Positions 49,485-53,902 of a DNA stretch of 64,000 nucleotides are shown piece by piece (the first letter of the stretch is position 1; each line of letters starts with the position of its first letter). Location of the stretch: positions 32,001 through 96,000 of the IMG/VR virus record IMGVR_UViG_3300022752_000025; one strand, 5' to 3'. Origin of the DNA: a virus. The position numbers and the translations under genes were made by a program. The notes below the pieces were generated by a model, which did not search any database, was not told the DNA's origin, and worked only from the letters and a program-made list of their open reading frames with translations.

Positions 49485-52256
49485 TTACACTCTTGGGATA
49501 TTTCCTGTATTTTGAACTAAATTATATTTAATAGAAATATCCTCTTTAGAATCATCGCTTGTTTTAAATGATATTAAACCTGTGCAAATTGGGACATTAT
49601 ATTCTTTAAATTTATTTAAATTTTGAGGTGAATATGGACTAATTTTATTTATTTTATTTCCTGCATAGGCTGAATATTTGTCTCCATAATATAAATTATC
49701 TGGTATATGAGCCGCAGAGATCTTGAATGTTTTAACGCTTGCCGATGTATATCCTGTAATTTCAAAAGTTTCTGGATTTACTAATACTCCACTTTTTAAA
49801 GTTTCACTAATAGCCGAACCTAGATATGGATTTCTTCCAGAGCCGTATATATTATTTCCTGTATAAAAATAAAATCCAGTATATGAAATTGGTAAAAGTA
49901 AATCATAAGTTTTATCTGTTTCTAAATATAATTCTGGATATCTTTGATTTTGGAATCTATAGTAAACTTTTGCTCCACTTCTTTCTTGTGGAATATCAAA
50001 TTGGCTAAAAACTTTAGTTCTTAATACTAAATTTAAACTTTGTTCTCTTAAATTATCTCCACTGATCATCATTTTGCCTGTGATTGAATTTGGCGAAACG
50101 GAAAAATATTCTATACTTGGATCAATATTATTTTCCTTCACACTAAATTGAATTAATCTATAATTCCCGTTGATTTTATTATAATTTGGTTCAATAACTT
50201 TTAATCCACTTACATCACCTTTAATAGCTAAAGGCCTATGATGCGATAAGTTTGTTTGCAAGAAATTATATTTAAGGCCTTTTTTTAATATTATTTCATC
50301 TAATTTTTTATATTTATTTGAAACTGTATCGTAGAATCTATATCCAGATCCACTTAAAAAGTTAACTGAAACATATTCTTGCTTTGAGTCTTCTGTGTTA
50401 AAAGTTGGTAAATTATTTCTTTGTAATTTAAAAAGTAAATCTAATTGTACTGCTCCAGTTATTGGATTAAAATTATTTTTCTGATAAACAAGTTGACCAT
50501 TTTGATTTTTAAATAAACCAGAATAACCTTCTCTATATTTAAAATATTGTCTCTCAGTATTTAAATTTGAAACATAGGTATCTGGTTCTACATTAACAGT
50601 AATGTTTGCTTGACCTTGATAAGAAGGTAATGCTTTAGTTTTTGATGCAAATTTTGCTTTTAATGTAGAAGTTTCTGAAATTATATTTAAACCTGTTGCA
50701 TAAGCTGTAAGCCCAAATACTGGACTAGATGTAGGTAGATTACCATTATTATCATATTTTAACAATGATCCTTCTAAATTATACTCTAGATTATCTCCAG
50801 TGCCTTGAATTACGCCTAATTGATTTTCTCTAAAAGATGAAAAATAGTAATCATCAAAAAATATTTTAGTATTATTTCCCAAAGCCTTTGTAGAAGCTGA
50901 AATTAATTTAGATTTTACTAAAAAGCTTAATTTACCATCTTCTAGCATTGTGCCTGTAACTTCATTTAAAATTAAACCGCCAGTATTTGTATAGATTTTT
51001 GTTCCATTAGCTAAAGTAGAGGAATGAGTTCCAGTCTTTAGATAATTAATTCTAAAATTAATATCCACGCTACTATTTTTACCTATTGTATAATATTTTA
51101 CAAGTTGGCCAGATAAAGGATGATTATTTGGATAAACAAATTGAGTTATTTTAAATTTATCATCAATTACTTCAAGATTTGAAGAAGCAGAAGAGATATA
51201 AAAATTCTTTGGTAAATCTCCAGTATTAAATACAGAAAATGAATAAACTTCTCTATCGTTTAAAGTGCCAGATTGATTTATAGTATAATTATTATTATAT
51301 AACTTGTATAATCCAGTATTATTTGGTTGAAAATATGGTCCATATCCTAAATCAAAAGAATTTGGAGAAGTTCCTGTTGGAATCCAGGAAACAGTTCCGC
51401 TAAATACAAATATTCTACGAATTGTTTCGTCTGATGATTTAACTTTTATAGGATCATCATATTGTAAATTTCTTTCGCCCCTCATTTCTGTATAAACAAA
51501 AGAACATCTATTCGTTACACACCATTCAATATTTGGAATATTATCTTGAAAATATATTTTATTATAAGAAATTAATTGCCCAGTTTTTGTGCCAGAGATA
51601 ATACCGCTAGTTTGTGCGTCCGCATAGTATTCTGATAATCCAAAATTTAATAATTCTTTTTTCGTCCAATAATTTCTTCCTACGCTTCCTAATTGATATC
51701 CACTATGATCAACTAATTCGAAAATATTTTTATATGGAGATATAAATGGTGCCCATGGAAGATCATTTCTAACGAATCCGCAAATTTTAAATCTTTGGCC
51801 AGAGGAAATTCCTTCTGGATATCCAAAACCATCTTCTTTTCCATAAGGAAATCCTGCGTCAGGTTCAAAATTAGCTCTTATAGTCCTATCCAAGCAATAA
51901 GCTTGACCATTTACTGTAGTATATGGATCTTTATCTAAAGGATAATATGTCTTGGCAAATTTAATTTTTAATCCAGATGCTCTATAAGTTTTTAACCATC
52001 CAGATTCATACCATAATGAATTATAATTATCTTTTCTGTAAGTTTTTAAATCATTTAAATAATTTTGATTATCTCTTTTAGATATTTCGCTACCTAAAAT
52101 TACTTTAGAATTGTTTAACAAATCTTTAAATTTTGGTGTTAAATATTCTTTATCTGCATATTCATAATAAGTATTATTAATAGCAGATGCTAAATCTAAG
52201 TCTTTAGCTTTTGTTTGACCGCTAAATCCTTTTCTATATCCAGTAATTTTATTCAT
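49485..52256 (-). CDS. Large probable virion structural / tail-associated protein
   Basis: 923 aa, recurrent SG/TG dipeptides, L.LKKG.KYNF and PDNLYY motifs. Confidence 0.65.
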   Translation of the reverse strand: MNKITGYRKGFSGQTKAKDLDLASAINNTYYEYADKEYLTPKFKDLLNNSKVILGSEISKRDNQNYLNDLKTYRKDNYNSLWYESGWLKTYRASGLKIKFAKTYYPLDKDPYTTVNGQAYCLDRTIRANFEPDAGFPYGKEDGFGYPEGISSGQRFKICGFVRNDLPWAPFISPYKNIFELVDHSGYQLGSVGRNYWTKKELLNFGLSEYYADAQTSGIISGTKTGQLISYNKIYFQDNIPNIEWCVTNRCSFVYTEMRGERNLQYDDPIKVKSSDETIRRIFVFSGTVSWIPTGTSPNSFDLGYGPYFQPNNTGLYKLYNNNYTINQSGTLNDREVYSFSVFNTGDLPKNFYISSASSNLEVIDDKFKITQFVYPNNHPLSGQLVKYYTIGKNSSVDINFRINYLKTGTHSSTLANGTKIYTNTGGLILNEVTGTMLEDGKLSFLVKSKLISASTKALGNNTKIFFDDYYFSSFRENQLGVIQGTGDNLEYNLEGSLLKYDNNGNLPTSSPVFGLTAYATGLNIISETSTLKAKFASKTKALPSYQGQANITVNVEPDTYVSNLNTERQYFKYREGYSGLFKNQNGQLVYQKNNFNPITGAVQLDLLFKLQRNNLPTFNTEDSKQEYVSVNFLSGSGYRFYDTVSNKYKKLDEIILKKGLKYNFLQTNLSHHRPLAIKGDVSGLKVIEPNYNKINGNYRLIQFSVKENNIDPSIEYFSVSPNSITGKMMISGDNLREQSLNLVLRTKVFSQFDIPQERSGAKVYYRFQNQRYPELYLETDKTYDLLLPISYTGFYFYTGNNIYGSGRNPYLGSAISETLKSGVLVNPETFEITGYTSASVKTFKISAAHIPDNLYYGDKYSAYAGNKINKISPYSPQNLNKFKEYNVPICTGLISFKTSDDSKEDISIKYNLVQNTGNIPRV

Positions 52257-52388
52257 GATTTTTAGGCCTAGCTTTGTCTAGACTTCTTGTTGCTCTTTTT
52301 TGCCTCATTTCTGAACCCTGATGTTCTCAATGAAAAAGCCGGTTATCTAGATGTTAAAACCTTTCTGGTGGTTTCTTCTTGCTCTTCT

Positions 52389-52636
52389 CATGTATGTTAT
52401 TTTTCATTTTTTAAAATGAAAACTCGATGTCTCCATCGAGATCGGACTATATCTTGCTTACTGACTTTCGTTAGTAAGACTGGGTGCTCGTGTCTCTGTT
52501 ATTGTTACGGTAACTCAAGAGTTAGTCTCTACACCTTCATGCTTCGTTTTTACCGTGAAGCAGGCTTGGCTCGGTATAATCCACTTGGGACTTCCACCGA
52601 ATTCACCCAGTATGCCCATCATCTTTTAAAGAACTA
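52389..52636 (-). ncRNA. Group I intron core (IA-like), no internal ORF, splice sites undefined
   Basis: P3 ACTGGGTG/CACCCAGT, P4 TTCGGT/ACCGAG, R GTGTAGAGACTA, S AAGATATAGTCC, P8 GAAA loop, P9 GAGA loop. Confidence 0.85.
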
Positions 52637-52642
52637 TAACCT

Positions 52643-52649
52643 ATTACAC
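52643..52649 (-). promoter_or_regulatory. GTGTAAT motif (putative phage-sigma promoter) upstream of the group I RNA
   Basis: Same motif precedes eleven other gene starts in window. Confidence 0.55.
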
Positions 52650-52674
52650 TAAATAATATAATGTGAAATTATTT

Positions 52675-53667
52675 TTATATTTTTTCTTTATCACCAGAAA
52701 ACATTATTTGTAGTTCTTCTTTTATGGAGTTATTTATTTCTGATTTTATGAAAGATTTCATTTCGTCTAACTCATCAAATGAATAAAGAATATTATCTTG
52801 ATATAGCCTATATAGATTTATTTTTTCAAGAATATCACACTTATTAAAAATTAACTTATTGACCCCAGAAATTCTAATTGCACGAATTAATTTTGTTAAA
52901 TTCAACCAATTAACTAATCTTTTTCTACCAGTTGTAGAACCAAACTCCTGCCCAATATCAATAATCATATTCAATTCTGGATCATTCCAGAGATATTCTG
53001 GAAATAATGGATCTACTCCACTTTTTGTATCGTAAATTTTTGCAACGCCAATTATATCTCTAATTTTTTTTGGAGAAAAACCTAAAGAGCAAGCAGAGTA
53101 TGGAAGAGTTTCGCTACTAGTAACATAAGGATAATTTCCATAATTTATATCTAACCAAAAGCTTTGAGCTCCTTCACAAAGGATTTTGCCATAAAGATTT
53201 CCATCCCAAATATATTTTTTATCAATATAATCTTTTGCTAATTTTCCAGTTCTTAGCATTTTATCTGCATAAGCTGGGGCGATACCTTGTCCAGTGGTCC
53301 CAAGCTTTGGCTTTAAAAATTTAAGATCATATTGAATATGTCTTTCTGTGATGATATTTGCGTTTGAACTTACTTTAATTAAAGAAGTATCAAATCCATT
53401 TTTTTCAAGGTATTCTATTTCGTCAAAAAATTTATCTACATTAATAACGCAATTTGGTCCAATAACACTAATTTTATTTTGAAATATACCGCATGGTATT
53501 ATATGCGTTTTATATTTTTTATTATTTAAATAAATAGTGTGCCCAGCATTTGGCCCGCCATTCCAACGACAGACCATATCGTAATCTTTAGATATAGTAT
53601 TAGTAATTTTACCTTTTCCTTCATCTCCCCAACATAATCCAAAAATAATATCAACTAGTTTTATCAT
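52675..53667 (-). CDS. purA: Adenylosuccinate synthetase (short form)
   Basis: WGDEGKG, GGPNAGHT, GTTGQGIAPAYADK, EGAQ, YPYVTSS, EFGSTTGRKR. Confidence 0.95.
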   Translation of the reverse strand: MIKLVDIIFGLCWGDEGKGKITNTISKDYDMVCRWNGGPNAGHTIYLNNKKYKTHIIPCGIFQNKISVIGPNCVINVDKFFDEIEYLEKNGFDTSLIKVSSNANIITERHIQYDLKFLKPKLGTTGQGIAPAYADKMLRTGKLAKDYIDKKYIWDGNLYGKILCEGAQSFWLDINYGNYPYVTSSETLPYSACSLGFSPKKIRDIIGVAKIYDTKSGVDPLFPEYLWNDPELNMIIDIGQEFGSTTGRKRLVNWLNLTKLIRAIRISGVNKLIFNKCDILEKINLYRLYQDNILYSFDELDEMKSFIKSEINNSIKEELQIMFSGDKEKI

Positions 53668-53902
53668 TATTATTTGATTTTAATTCATTTAAATAATTTT
53701 CTAAATTTTCTTTAGCTTTTGTACAATAATCTTGTCCTGATTTGCCACAACAATTTTTAAATTTTGTTAAAGTGAGTGGACACCAAGTATTCCTAGGGAC
53801 TTTATTTAAAACTCTAACTATTGGAGAAAATGGGGTAGCTCTGGCGTAAGGATTATCTGGTAGTTTTATATTTTTTACATTCTCGTTTACATTTTCATTC
53901 AT
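53651..53902 (-). CDS. SEC-C-motif-like protein
   Basis: KVPRNTWCP....KFKNCCG. Confidence 0.6.
   Translation of the reverse strand: MNENVNENVKNIKLPDNPYARATPFSPIVRVLNKVPRNTWCPLTLTKFKNCCGKSGQDYCTKAKENLENYLNELKSNNNDKTS

Follow-up and report, generated by a model that had tools for sequence, protein, structure and literature searches.

In bacteria and phages, group I ribozymes have been portrayed as selfish introns that occupy tRNA, rRNA and protein genes; a single domesticated case, linked to a riboswitch, is the exception (PMC3984707). This exception, the c-di-GMP allosteric group I ribozyme of Clostridium difficile, resides in a 5′ UTR, where the site of GTP attack sets the sequence ahead of the start codon; its splice sites stand in the normal order and a riboswitch aptamer lies upstream (PMC3984707). 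PIE constructs derived from the T4 td and Anabaena pre-tRNA introns place the 3′ splice site ahead of the 5′ one; the intron is split in a loop, half-introns flank the exon, and back-splicing yields a circular exon (PMC10457212). Engineered Tetrahymena self-targeting and splicing (STS) constructs run from a guide through a ribozyme with its terminal G and an insert to a target NNNNNU and a downstream by-product, and they circularize by means of P1 alone and have no need of P10; they are man-made and use an IC1 ribozyme with a 6-nt guide (PMC10457212). Among natural RNAs, the giant ND5-717 group I intron of mushroom-coral mitochondria is presented by its authors as the first reported natural case; this eukaryotic, mitochondrial intron lies within a protein gene, ND5, whose mRNA it restores (PMC6545197). 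Bacterial circularly permuted group II introns can stand alone, interrupt no ORF and produce small RNA circles, using another ribozyme class and another chemistry, branching (PMC8637638).

Here we describe an element on the minus strand of a phage genome, within the 64,000-nt stretch of DNA that we analysed (the window). It follows the order of the STS constructs. Unlike them, it is natural, is assigned to the phage IA type, has a P1 of 4-6 bp, carries a promoter motif and a boxA-like signal, and has a long mRNA in place of the by-product. Unlike in PIE constructs, the whole core lies upstream in one piece and the 5′ strand of P1 is the sole part to have been displaced; unlike ND5-717, the element interrupts no gene and resides in a phage. 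Our literature search found no phage or bacterial precedent for a ribozyme-first permuted group I element.

The group I core and its relatives

A local Rfam scan matched RF00028 (Intron_gpI) to positions 52423-52733 of the minus strand over the full model (1-253), with 69.0 bits and an E-value of 2.2e-17 (gathering score, 50 bits). At the gathering threshold, a scan of the whole window returned 11 tRNAs only and missed this match, which we take to be an effect of the speed filter. The same happened at a second, paralogous ribozyme in the same genome, which gave no match when the whole locus was scanned and 66.6 bits for RF00028 on a narrower stretch. RNA folding of 52257-52674 gave z = -4.17 relative to 100 shuffles. 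In an alignment of 24 family copies, 23 of the 45 pairs predicted for the core have undergone compensatory double changes; the R and S elements, and via them P7, do not vary among 25 copies and agree with the Rfam consensus. The insertion between P7 and P3′ folds in the family consensus as two small helices of the P7.1/P7.2 type (columns 124-136 and 140-150), one of which shows compensatory changes. With these helices in that position, we take the ribozyme to belong to the phage-type subgroup IA. By these comparative measures the group I core is genuine, complete and under selection, and it is predicted to carry out guanosine-dependent transesterification.

The first-pass annotation, made from the letters alone, had read a full group I core here. 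Its positions for P3, R and S are exact, and covariance-model search, the check it proposed, found RF00028 above the cut-off in the local scan. The IA-like insertion, the GAGA-capped P9 with a further hairpin behind it, and a GTGTAAT motif about 30 nt ahead of P3 (the distance is 32 nt) were likewise recovered. P9 with the U-run that follows it also scores as a terminator-like site.

Table 1 Features of the element and its flanking genes (window coordinates).
Feature	Position	Strand	Basis
purA-like gene, 330 aa; upstream neighbour, outside the element	52675-53667	minus	PF00709, E 3.1e-79
GTGTAAT motif of gene starts, promoter-like; 9 nt, counted from GTGTAA, to the boxA-like element	52643-52649	minus	motif counts
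boxA-like leader AGUUCUUUAAAA, putative NusB/NusE antitermination signal	52624-52635	minus	conserved motif
GGGC, internal guide that supplies the 3′ strand of P1; 3 nt ahead of P3	52614-52617	minus	pairs with 52267-52264
Group I catalytic core P3-P9 with P7.1/P7.2, then P9.1	52401-52611	minus	RF00028 and consensus fold
P3	52604-52611 / 52479-52486	minus	sequence
R element GTGTAGAGACTA	52523-52534	minus	sequence
S element AAGATATAGTCC	52444-52455	minus	sequence
P9, GAGA loop	52423-52440	minus	sequence
P9.1, further hairpin past P9	52401-52422	minus	sequence
Candidate omega-G (3′ splice site), end of A-rich linker AUAACAUACAUG	52389	minus	invariant TG columns
125-nt "exon" between 3′ and 5′ splice sites; structured RNA, predicted circle	52264-52388	minus	GC content and conserved fold
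P1 5′ strand GCCU, 7 nt ahead of ATG; predicted 5′ splice site after U52264	52264-52267	minus	guide pairing
AAAAAUC, 7-nt leader predicted on the mRNA after cleavage	52257-52263	minus	ATG 3-12 nt past the cut in relatives
923-aa ORF, downstream gene family 1	49485-52256	minus	ORF list

Lariat-capping (GIR1) ribozymes have a rearranged core, lie inside eukaryotic twin-ribozyme introns and perform a branching reaction that leaves a 3-nt lariat. Like the predicted phage device, they are group I-derived and make the 5′ end of a downstream mRNA (PMC8637638). The Rfam matches in 52100-52800 include no lariat-capping family (E up to 10) and no riboswitch aptamer family beside the ribozyme.

An nhmmer search returned 42 hits above 100 bits. 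Three without the anchor word were dropped (L024, L027 and L034), two of which, L024 and L027, sit at the edge of their loci and align to the profile only from its positions 31 and 40 on; the remaining 39 represent 26 distinct copies of the element in uncultured phage contigs. Since L028 and L042 lack the 3′ part, tail statistics refer to 24 copies (25 with L167). The other 99 hits (at most 71.9 bits) are other group I introns, of which L015 alone was taken up. This ordinary relative shares the IA-type core, the P7.1/P7.2 insertion, the guide a few nucleotides before P3 and the absence of P2. It differs in that it interrupts a PolA-like gene, pairs P1 with the upstream exon and carries an HNH ORF, which is absent from the ribozyme-first family. 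A distant-mode search of the Phage GenBank collection with 51500-53700 gave no match, and a 20-mer scan of genome contigs found 0 loci and thus no lead to a host. The only RNA run listed, X9 (share 0.06), covers purA segments in 53009-53700 at below 90% identity and nothing over 52257-52649. Contigs of data set X3 break off within the core, at 52515 and 52585, as a two-copy repeat would lead one to expect.

Guide pairing and the order of the splice sites

All 26 copies share the first G of the guide, always 13 nt ahead of GAATTCGG. When the target was set by context alone (a U followed by AA, with GC-rich sequence before it), 23 of the 24 full copies paired with their own guide over at least 4 bp, compared with 32 of 384 swapped guides. 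The helix is compensated across six types (guide:target GGCC:GGCU, GCCC:GGGU, GGUC:GACU, GGGC:GCCU, GCCA:UGGU and GCCU:AGGU), and the two ribozymes of this genome carry different pairs, GGGC:GCCU in the window copy and GGCC:GGCU in the paralog. P1 measures 4 bp in the window copy and 4-6 bp across the family. Setting the site only as U before AA[AC], at most 24 nt from the ORF start, gave 4-6 bp of pairing in all 13 family-1 rows. In the alignment, 100 of 100 P1 cells are paired and three of four pairs are compensated, a level that none of 500 shuffles reached, while slid controls were paired at 63% at most; the count leans towards structure because the row ends were picked by complementarity. 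Of 25 copies, 24 keep a G·U pair where cleavage is predicted; L018 has C in place of U there, which counts against our preferred reading. Four-base-pair matches that include wobbles are common by chance, and this too is counted against it.

Upstream of the guide we found no conserved partner in the family; matches of at least 4 bp are sporadic and occur at non-homologous places. The spacing from GTGTAA to the guide G is exactly 14 nt in 14 of the 16 layout-ii copies, too short to accommodate a 5′ exon strand. The first-pass annotation saw no evident host exon, which is correct for the upstream side, where no exon strand is conserved; the partner strand of P1 is nevertheless present, downstream. 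The P1 strand that ends in U, with G·U at the cleavage site, is found downstream of the core rather than upstream. As the guide pairs downstream, the 5′ splice site is predicted to lie beyond both the ribozyme and its candidate terminal G, so that the splice sites would stand in permuted order, 52389 ahead of 52264 on the minus strand, probably on a single transcript. In the strict sense this is not a group I intron, as no host gene is interrupted and no exons would be joined in linear order.

The 3′ splice site is placed by invariant UG (TG) columns 10-13 nt after P9.1 in the 24-row alignment, in which the L010 row is ambiguous and its end was set by pattern. The family sequences show no consistent P10 pairing of the exon start with bases 5′ of the guide and no consistent P9.0 pairing of the bases before the UG with J7/9, so G52389 is a candidate omega-G by conservation alone.

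The exon, the leader and the flanking genes

The exon has a GC content of 0.40, compared with 0.23 over the next 300 nt. Its predicted fold is compensated at 14 of 24 pairs in group A (four sequences) and at 8 of 19 pairs in the paralogous group B (seven sequences), in whose alignment the L162 row is cut short by the range chosen. The first-pass annotation described about 130 nt of hairpin-forming sequence after the core; the tail is indeed structured, and the target at its end, GCCU/AAAAAUC-AUG, had been missed. No Rfam family matched the exon in the 52100-52800 scan. Exon lengths range from 86 to 179 nt across copies and are not consistently multiples of three. No k-mer rose above the shuffled null as a motif common to all exons, and AAUA[AG] at exon position 40-48 is found in only 8 of 14 lineages; the lack of a common motif is likewise counted against our preferred reading. 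We also considered a coding circle. A 28-aa Arg-rich ORF spans the predicted junction here and was judged fortuitous: junction-crossing ORFs of at least 10 aa occur in 9 of 23 predicted circles, none of them in L004, L005 or the paralog, and the peptides are unrelated between groups.

The motif that opens the element is a gene-start motif of this phage. GTGTAAT occurs at 16 sites in the window (7.5 expected; 0 of 100 shuffles reach 16), and 24 of 34 sites in the genome fall within the approximately 15% that is non-coding. Of 31 intergenic GTGTAA sites listed for the genome, 21 by manual count have an ORF start on the same strand no more than 60 nt downstream, and the commonest single GTGTAA-to-ATG distance in that listing is 14. 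GTGTAA precedes 25 of the 26 distinct copies, the 26th being cut by a contig end. The element had been credited with its own promoter. It does directly follow this motif, which probably acts as a promoter, with transcription starting just past it.

Behind the motif, the window copy carries AGUUCUUUA (also written GUUCUUUAA), and GTTCTTT[AG]A recurs in every one of the 26 distinct copies; 10 have it between the promoter motif and the guide and 16 in the P5 loop. The genome holds four instances of GTGTAA-N9-GTTCTTT: one ahead of the tmRNA gene, one ahead of each ribozyme and one within the 923-aa ORF. The boxA of E. coli rrn operons is 5′-UGCUCUUUA-3′ with the spacer acaauuua, and L008-type copies read AGUUCUUUAACAUU against its ugcucuuuaacaauuua (PMC2724277). 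The sequence and spacer resemble an rrn-type boxA located in the 5′ portion of a stable-RNA transcript, and the tmRNA shares the motif. We therefore call the GUUCUUU element boxA-like, with a putative protein-binding role. A role in guiding or pairing was rejected; a 7-bp match to the exon start in this copy is absent in groups B and C, and the element also moves from the 5′ leader to the P5 loop, which favours protein binding.

The flanking ORFs are complete, as the first-pass annotation held: the purA-like ORF ends where stated, the in-frame TAG eight codons above the ATG (52256) of the 923-aa gene is present, and no CDS or tRNA is interrupted, since 52200-52700 contains no tRNA or tmRNA and no Rfam RNA is split. 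The 923-aa protein and seven other downstream proteins have no Pfam, PHROG or atlas annotation, the sole match among them being a weak PHROG of unknown function (E 0.0013). The second ribozyme precedes a paralogous 928-aa gene, whose product is 25% identical to the 923-aa protein (E 5e-24, over the paralog's first 440 residues) or 26% over 766 columns in a longer alignment (E 5e-45). Two of the ten homologs of the 923-aa protein come without the ribozyme, which is counted against our preferred reading. Upstream genes vary among copies (purA, phoH-like and others). The 330-aa PurA aligns to residues 5-290 of the 339-aa PurA 2d7u and matches short archaeal chains of 339-340 aa end to end, so it is not visibly truncated. 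This match, and the closure of all three reading frames within the tail, ruled out a truncated purA completed by splicing.

A proposed permuted ribozyme and its alternatives

On balance we lean towards a domesticated, ribozyme-first group I ribozyme with permuted splice sites, in which a guanosine cut would free the mRNA and back-splicing would circularize the 125-nt exon. The transcript would run from the boxA-like leader through guide GGGC, core P3-P9.1, G52389, the 125-nt exon and GCCU to the 923-aa mRNA. The guide would fold back on the downstream GCCU to form P1 with a G·U at U52264. Exogenous guanosine or GTP would then attack past U52264 and release an mRNA beginning G-AAAAAUC-AUG, near-leaderless like those of the phage's GTGTAAT-N7-ATG genes. 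The 3′-OH of U52264 would attack after G52389, giving a circular 125-nt exon and a released linear ribozyme. Comparison of the copies shows the core, P1 pairing together with its position, the constant layout and the structure of the exon; the transcription start, catalysis, the identity of omega-G, the circle and any function the circle may have are predictions. The chemistry is plausible, as Tetrahymena constructs of the same order circularize (PMC10457212). The earlier suggestion of a free-standing ribozyme captures part of this design and overlooked the downstream splice-site target, and that of a UTR element on a structural gene is right in placing it before the 923-aa gene and missed the permuted order.

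If correct, this would mean that phages recruited a group I ribozyme as an RNA-processing device, with a ribozyme route for defining an mRNA 5′ end. Circular RNA made by a group I ribozyme would for the first time have a natural source in a phage or bacterium. Evolution would have arrived at the layout that RNA engineers devised to produce such circles, and the family could offer compact, low-temperature natural scaffolds for that use.

The permuted design shares its P1 evidence with a cleavage-only leader ribozyme, in which the guanosine cut matures the mRNA 5′ end, the 125 nt form a P9.x-extension tether and no circle arises. The ATG 3-12 nt past the predicted cut in the 15 family-1 copies, the lack of detectable P10 and P9.0, and an exon stem whose base joins the two exon ends in a tether-like manner all suit it. 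We nevertheless consider it unlikely. It gives no role to the invariant UG at a fixed distance past P9.1, and engineered constructs of the same order reach circles with P1 alone (PMC10457212). Moreover, eight full-tail family-2 copies and L018 retain ribozyme, exon and site despite an extra GTGTAA between the cut site and the gene, where L018 also has a terminator-like hairpin; mRNA release therefore cannot be the universal role, which weighs against the permuted reading too.

An extended form of the permuted reading seems quite improbable: a two-output machine yielding a selected circle (for example, an infection decoy or regulator), a virion-type mRNA with a GTP-derived 5′ end, and a freed ribozyme that starts at or near the guide and acts in trans on phage or host GGCU/GCCU-type sites, as a guanosine-dependent endonuclease or trans-splicer.

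There is a slim chance that the fold is a non-catalytic regulatory leader, whose guide/target helix masks a purine-rich AGG before the start or sets RNA stability. The targets UAGGCCU, UAAGGCU, CAGGACU and UAGGGU are indeed Shine-Dalgarno-like and lie 4-11 nt before ATG. Such a role would leave unexplained the invariance of R, S and thereby P7, as well as the specific G·U at the exact helix end, and the family-2 site lies 43-116 nt from any start codon.

It is very improbable that the ribozyme, after or instead of self-processing, cuts or trans-splices other RNAs bearing the 4-nt target. In layout-ii copies the RNA would begin with the guide G, much as in guide-first trans-splicing ribozymes (PMC10457212). 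A 4-nt guide, however, gives little specificity, a matching cis site occupies a conserved place in each copy, and guide and target differ together between the two copies of this genome.

Least probable of all is a conventional cis-splicing intron with its 5′ exon upstream, in a purA read-through or an unrecognized small RNA gene (the first-pass idea of an intron within an ncRNA, which in its ordinary sense finds no support): no terminator-like site separates the purA stop from the element, the window copy has one 6-bp match with three wobbles inside purA and a local hairpin ACAUUA/UAGUGU that overlaps GTGTAAT, yet neither upstream match is kept in L004, L005 or the paralog, the upstream genes differ, all three frames close in the tail, no interrupted tRNA or Rfam RNA is present, and in layout-ii copies the promoter motif stands 8 nt from the guide.

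The ribozyme core and its setting

The first-pass annotation had placed a group I core in the gap behind purA, and a local Rfam scan confirmed it with a match to RF00028 of 69.0 bits (cut-off 50, E 2.2e-17) over a complete catalytic core. The positions it had assigned to P3, R, S, P9 and the GTGTAAT motif all proved exact on the sequence. The scan of the whole window at default filters did not detect the element, whereas the local scan did, with no credible match there to any other Rfam family. The P1/P2 that the Rfam model placed within the end of purA looked forced and was set aside. RNAalifold on 24 copies yielded P3, P4, P5, P6/P6a, two helices between P7 and P3', P8 and P9, with compensatory double changes in 23 of the 45 core pairs, which indicates that the core is under selection.

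The proposal that no coding sequence or tRNA is interrupted also held. A Pfam PF00709 match and alignment over its length to short PurA chains of 339-340 aa indicate that PurA is untruncated, and a search for tRNA and tmRNA at the element found none. In sequence, this PurA homolog (52675-53667) matches solved PurA chains at E 4e-55 and PurZ at E 6e-9, and is thus far nearer to the former; its PHROGs label is '2-aminooxy adenylosuccinate synthetase' (phrog_1211). A 121-aa TTG-start ORF antisense to the ribozyme (52287-52652, plus strand) is taken to be an artefact of a GC-richer RNA gene.

Coordinates of the ribozyme, its relatives and neighbouring features (window positions unless prefixed; G000:C1, whole virus record)
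Feature	Position	Strand	Remark
Group I catalytic core	between purA-like gene and 923-aa ORF	minus	RF00028 match, complete
purA-like gene	52675-53667	minus	one flank of ribozyme
923-aa ORF	49485-52256	minus	other flank of ribozyme
Guide GGGC, pairing with GCCU	52617-52614 with 52267-52264	minus	
Second ribozyme-first copy, paralogous	G000:C1:21616-22031 (outside window; L002 ~1320-1735)	minus	66.6 bits
Ordinary relative intron with 271-aa HNH-type ORF, in PolA-like gene	L015:6790-7830		
Phage tmRNA gene	G000:C1:~97132-97548 (outside window; L158 261-649)	plus	RF00023, 107.5 bits

Guide pairing and the order of splice sites

Every copy has a G exactly 13 nt before GAATTCGG, which opens a GC-rich 4-5-mer 3 nt before P3. 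The guide, the 3' strand of P1, has this same position in the ordinary relative L015, where its partner is the upstream exon (AUGUGU/, the slash marking the splice site). The complement of the family guide, ending in U, is found not upstream but downstream, where the tail closes. The 5' splice-site context of L015, GUGU/AA, resembles the GTGTAA motif, which may be coincidence.

Two tests of this pairing are independent of the pairing hypothesis. In an ORF-based test, the site was defined as U/AA[AC] within 24 nt of the ATG of the downstream ORF, with no other criterion. Of the 20 evaluable rows, 13, comprising all those of gene family 1 (described below), form 4-6 bp with the guide of the same copy; in the seven with at most 2 bp, the gene carries a GTGTAA motif of its own at that place. 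This test yielded no site for three relatives (L008, L016 and L018), in the first two because the ORF caller took an upstream ATG. In a local-context test, at least 4 bp formed in 23 of 24 own pairs versus 32 of 384 swapped combinations, with six helix types. An end-anchored alignment of 25 copies has 100 of 100 P1 cells paired, a count that is not independent of the hypothesis because the row ends were picked using complementarity; slid controls reach at most 63%. The terminal pair is G.U in 24 of the 25, compensatory changes occur at three of four pairs, and none of 500 shuffles reached the covariation score. By chance alone, 4-bp sites that allow wobbles are common; the features of P1 that these comparisons mark as non-random are its conserved position, the U, the AAA or AAC after it, and the covariation. 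We consider it very likely that the guide pairs with the downstream site. The exception is L018, in which the base at the predicted cut is C, not U. Its core scores best of all among the matches listed (232.9 bits), and in its tail a terminator-like hairpin and a fresh GTGTAAT separate the element from the gene behind it.

In every copy, P9.1 is followed by 10-13 nt of A-rich linker with UG at its end; the UG columns are invariant in a 24-row alignment, with one relative (L010) ambiguous. The G of this UG, G52389, is the candidate terminal G and lies 125 nt from the predicted 5' splice site after U52264 (86-179 nt across the family). Since it stands ahead of the 5' splice site, the order would run from guide and core through the 3' splice site and the exon to the 5' splice site. 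Engineered self-targeting-and-splicing constructs share this order and, in the available text of their description, circularise their insert with P1 alone required (PMC10457212).

A guanosine-dependent cut at the downstream site is probable, and after U52264 it would free a near-leaderless mRNA. A second step would make a 125-nt circle from the exon, and on balance we favour the full two-step reaction, with mRNA release and circle. The base of the predicted exon fold brings both splice sites together. Cleavage only, with the mRNA released and no circle formed, shares the predicted cut and is rather unlikely. We regard a structural or regulatory fold without catalysis as improbable. Trans-action is more doubtful still, and a conventional intron is the least probable.

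In the available text of the sources consulted, natural back-splicing by a group I intron is published for one coral mitochondrial intron, self-described as the first (PMC6545197), and permuted group II introns are known from bacteria (PMC8637638). The words 'intergenic', 'trans-splicing' and 'circular' each occur zero times in the available text of a 2014 review on group I introns in bacteria (PMC3984707). The literature searched, largely outside subscription journals, yielded no group I element from a phage or bacterium with this layout.

Family, downstream genes and exons

The 132,273-base virus record, of which the window is bases 32001-96000, contains a second copy, flanked by a PhoH-like gene and a 928-aa ORF. 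Its guide GGCC pairs with GGCU/AAAAUU-AUG, giving a predicted exon of 138 nt. The two cores are near-identical, P9 differing by compensatory changes; the 923- and 928-aa products are paralogs of only 25-26% identity. A 20-nt core word retrieved 15 viral and 27 metagenome loci, and a degenerate one at least 118 further viral loci. Among the matches listed, a core nhmmer profile gave 141 over 155 sources, 42 above 100 bits and the next best at 71.9 bits. Leaving out three without the anchor word and merging duplicates left, among those listed, 26 distinct copies, 24 with a complete tail; one locus (L167) joined the set later. The 20-nt word is absent from the genomes of 185,579 species, and the element region has no match in the GenBank phage set. 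Sequencing runs holding at least half of the region's words are freshwater or lake metagenomes by label, from two studies, of which one may be the source. Among the matches listed, loci L046-L157, on viral contigs, hold about 99 further group I-like matches of 25-72 bits, with two to four at a single locus in some cases (e.g. L128, L054, L107).

The genes behind the copies form two families. Family 1 (563-1061 aa) includes the 923- and 928-aa ORFs and has its ATG 3-12 nt past the cut site; in family 2 (264-379 aa) the ATG lies 43-116 nt past it, with a separate GTGTAA between. A family-1 profile found 10 viral loci, eight with the ribozyme; four contigs were new relative to the RNA search, two with the ribozyme and two without. 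Release of mRNA would thus fit family 1 but cannot be the sole reason the element is kept. One ribozyme-less locus (L165, ~1270-1480) has a different structured segment of ~165 nt between two GTGTAA motifs, closed by GCCUC...GAGGC and a U-run.

Across the family, exon GC is 0.33-0.49 versus 0.23-0.31 in the gene behind. The exon fold is elongated and conserved, with compensated pairs in 14 of 24 (exon group A) and 8 of 19 (group B). We found no Rfam family match for the exon, no motif common to the exons of all lineages and no conserved ORF in them. A junction-crossing ORF was rejected, being present in only 9 of 23 predicted circles with unrelated peptides. AAUA[AG] occurs at exon position 40-48 in 8 of 14 lineages (groups A, B, C and D) and is missing from the window copy and five other lineages.

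Putative transcription signals

GTGTAAT occurs at 16 sites in the window versus 7.5 expected, a number reached by none of 100 shuffles. Genome-wide, 24 of 34 sites fall within the ~15% non-coding DNA, mostly 12-36 nt ahead of same-strand starts, which indicates that it is a gene-start motif. The commonest single GTGTAA-to-ATG distance among genome sites is 14 nt. At that spacing a leader would be very short or absent, so leaderless or near-leaderless genes may be numerous in the phage.

In ten copies, including both in this genome, GTGTAA precedes the guide by 28-36 nt and GUUCUUUAA stands between the two; in the other 16, GUUCUUUGA lies within the P5 loop, and in 14 of these GTGTAA is placed exactly 14 nt ahead of the guide G. 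Both motifs resemble the rrn boxA as given in the available text of PMC2724277. P9 and its U-run score as a terminator-like site, so an antiterminator would have a purpose. From these motifs we infer a promoter, a start site and Nus binding at the element. The promoter motif and boxA-like leader of the ribozymes also precede the tmRNA gene, as GTGTAA-N9-GTTCTTTCT; in the genome, GTGTAA-N9-GTTCTTT is found before that gene, before the two ribozymes, once within an ORF and nowhere else.
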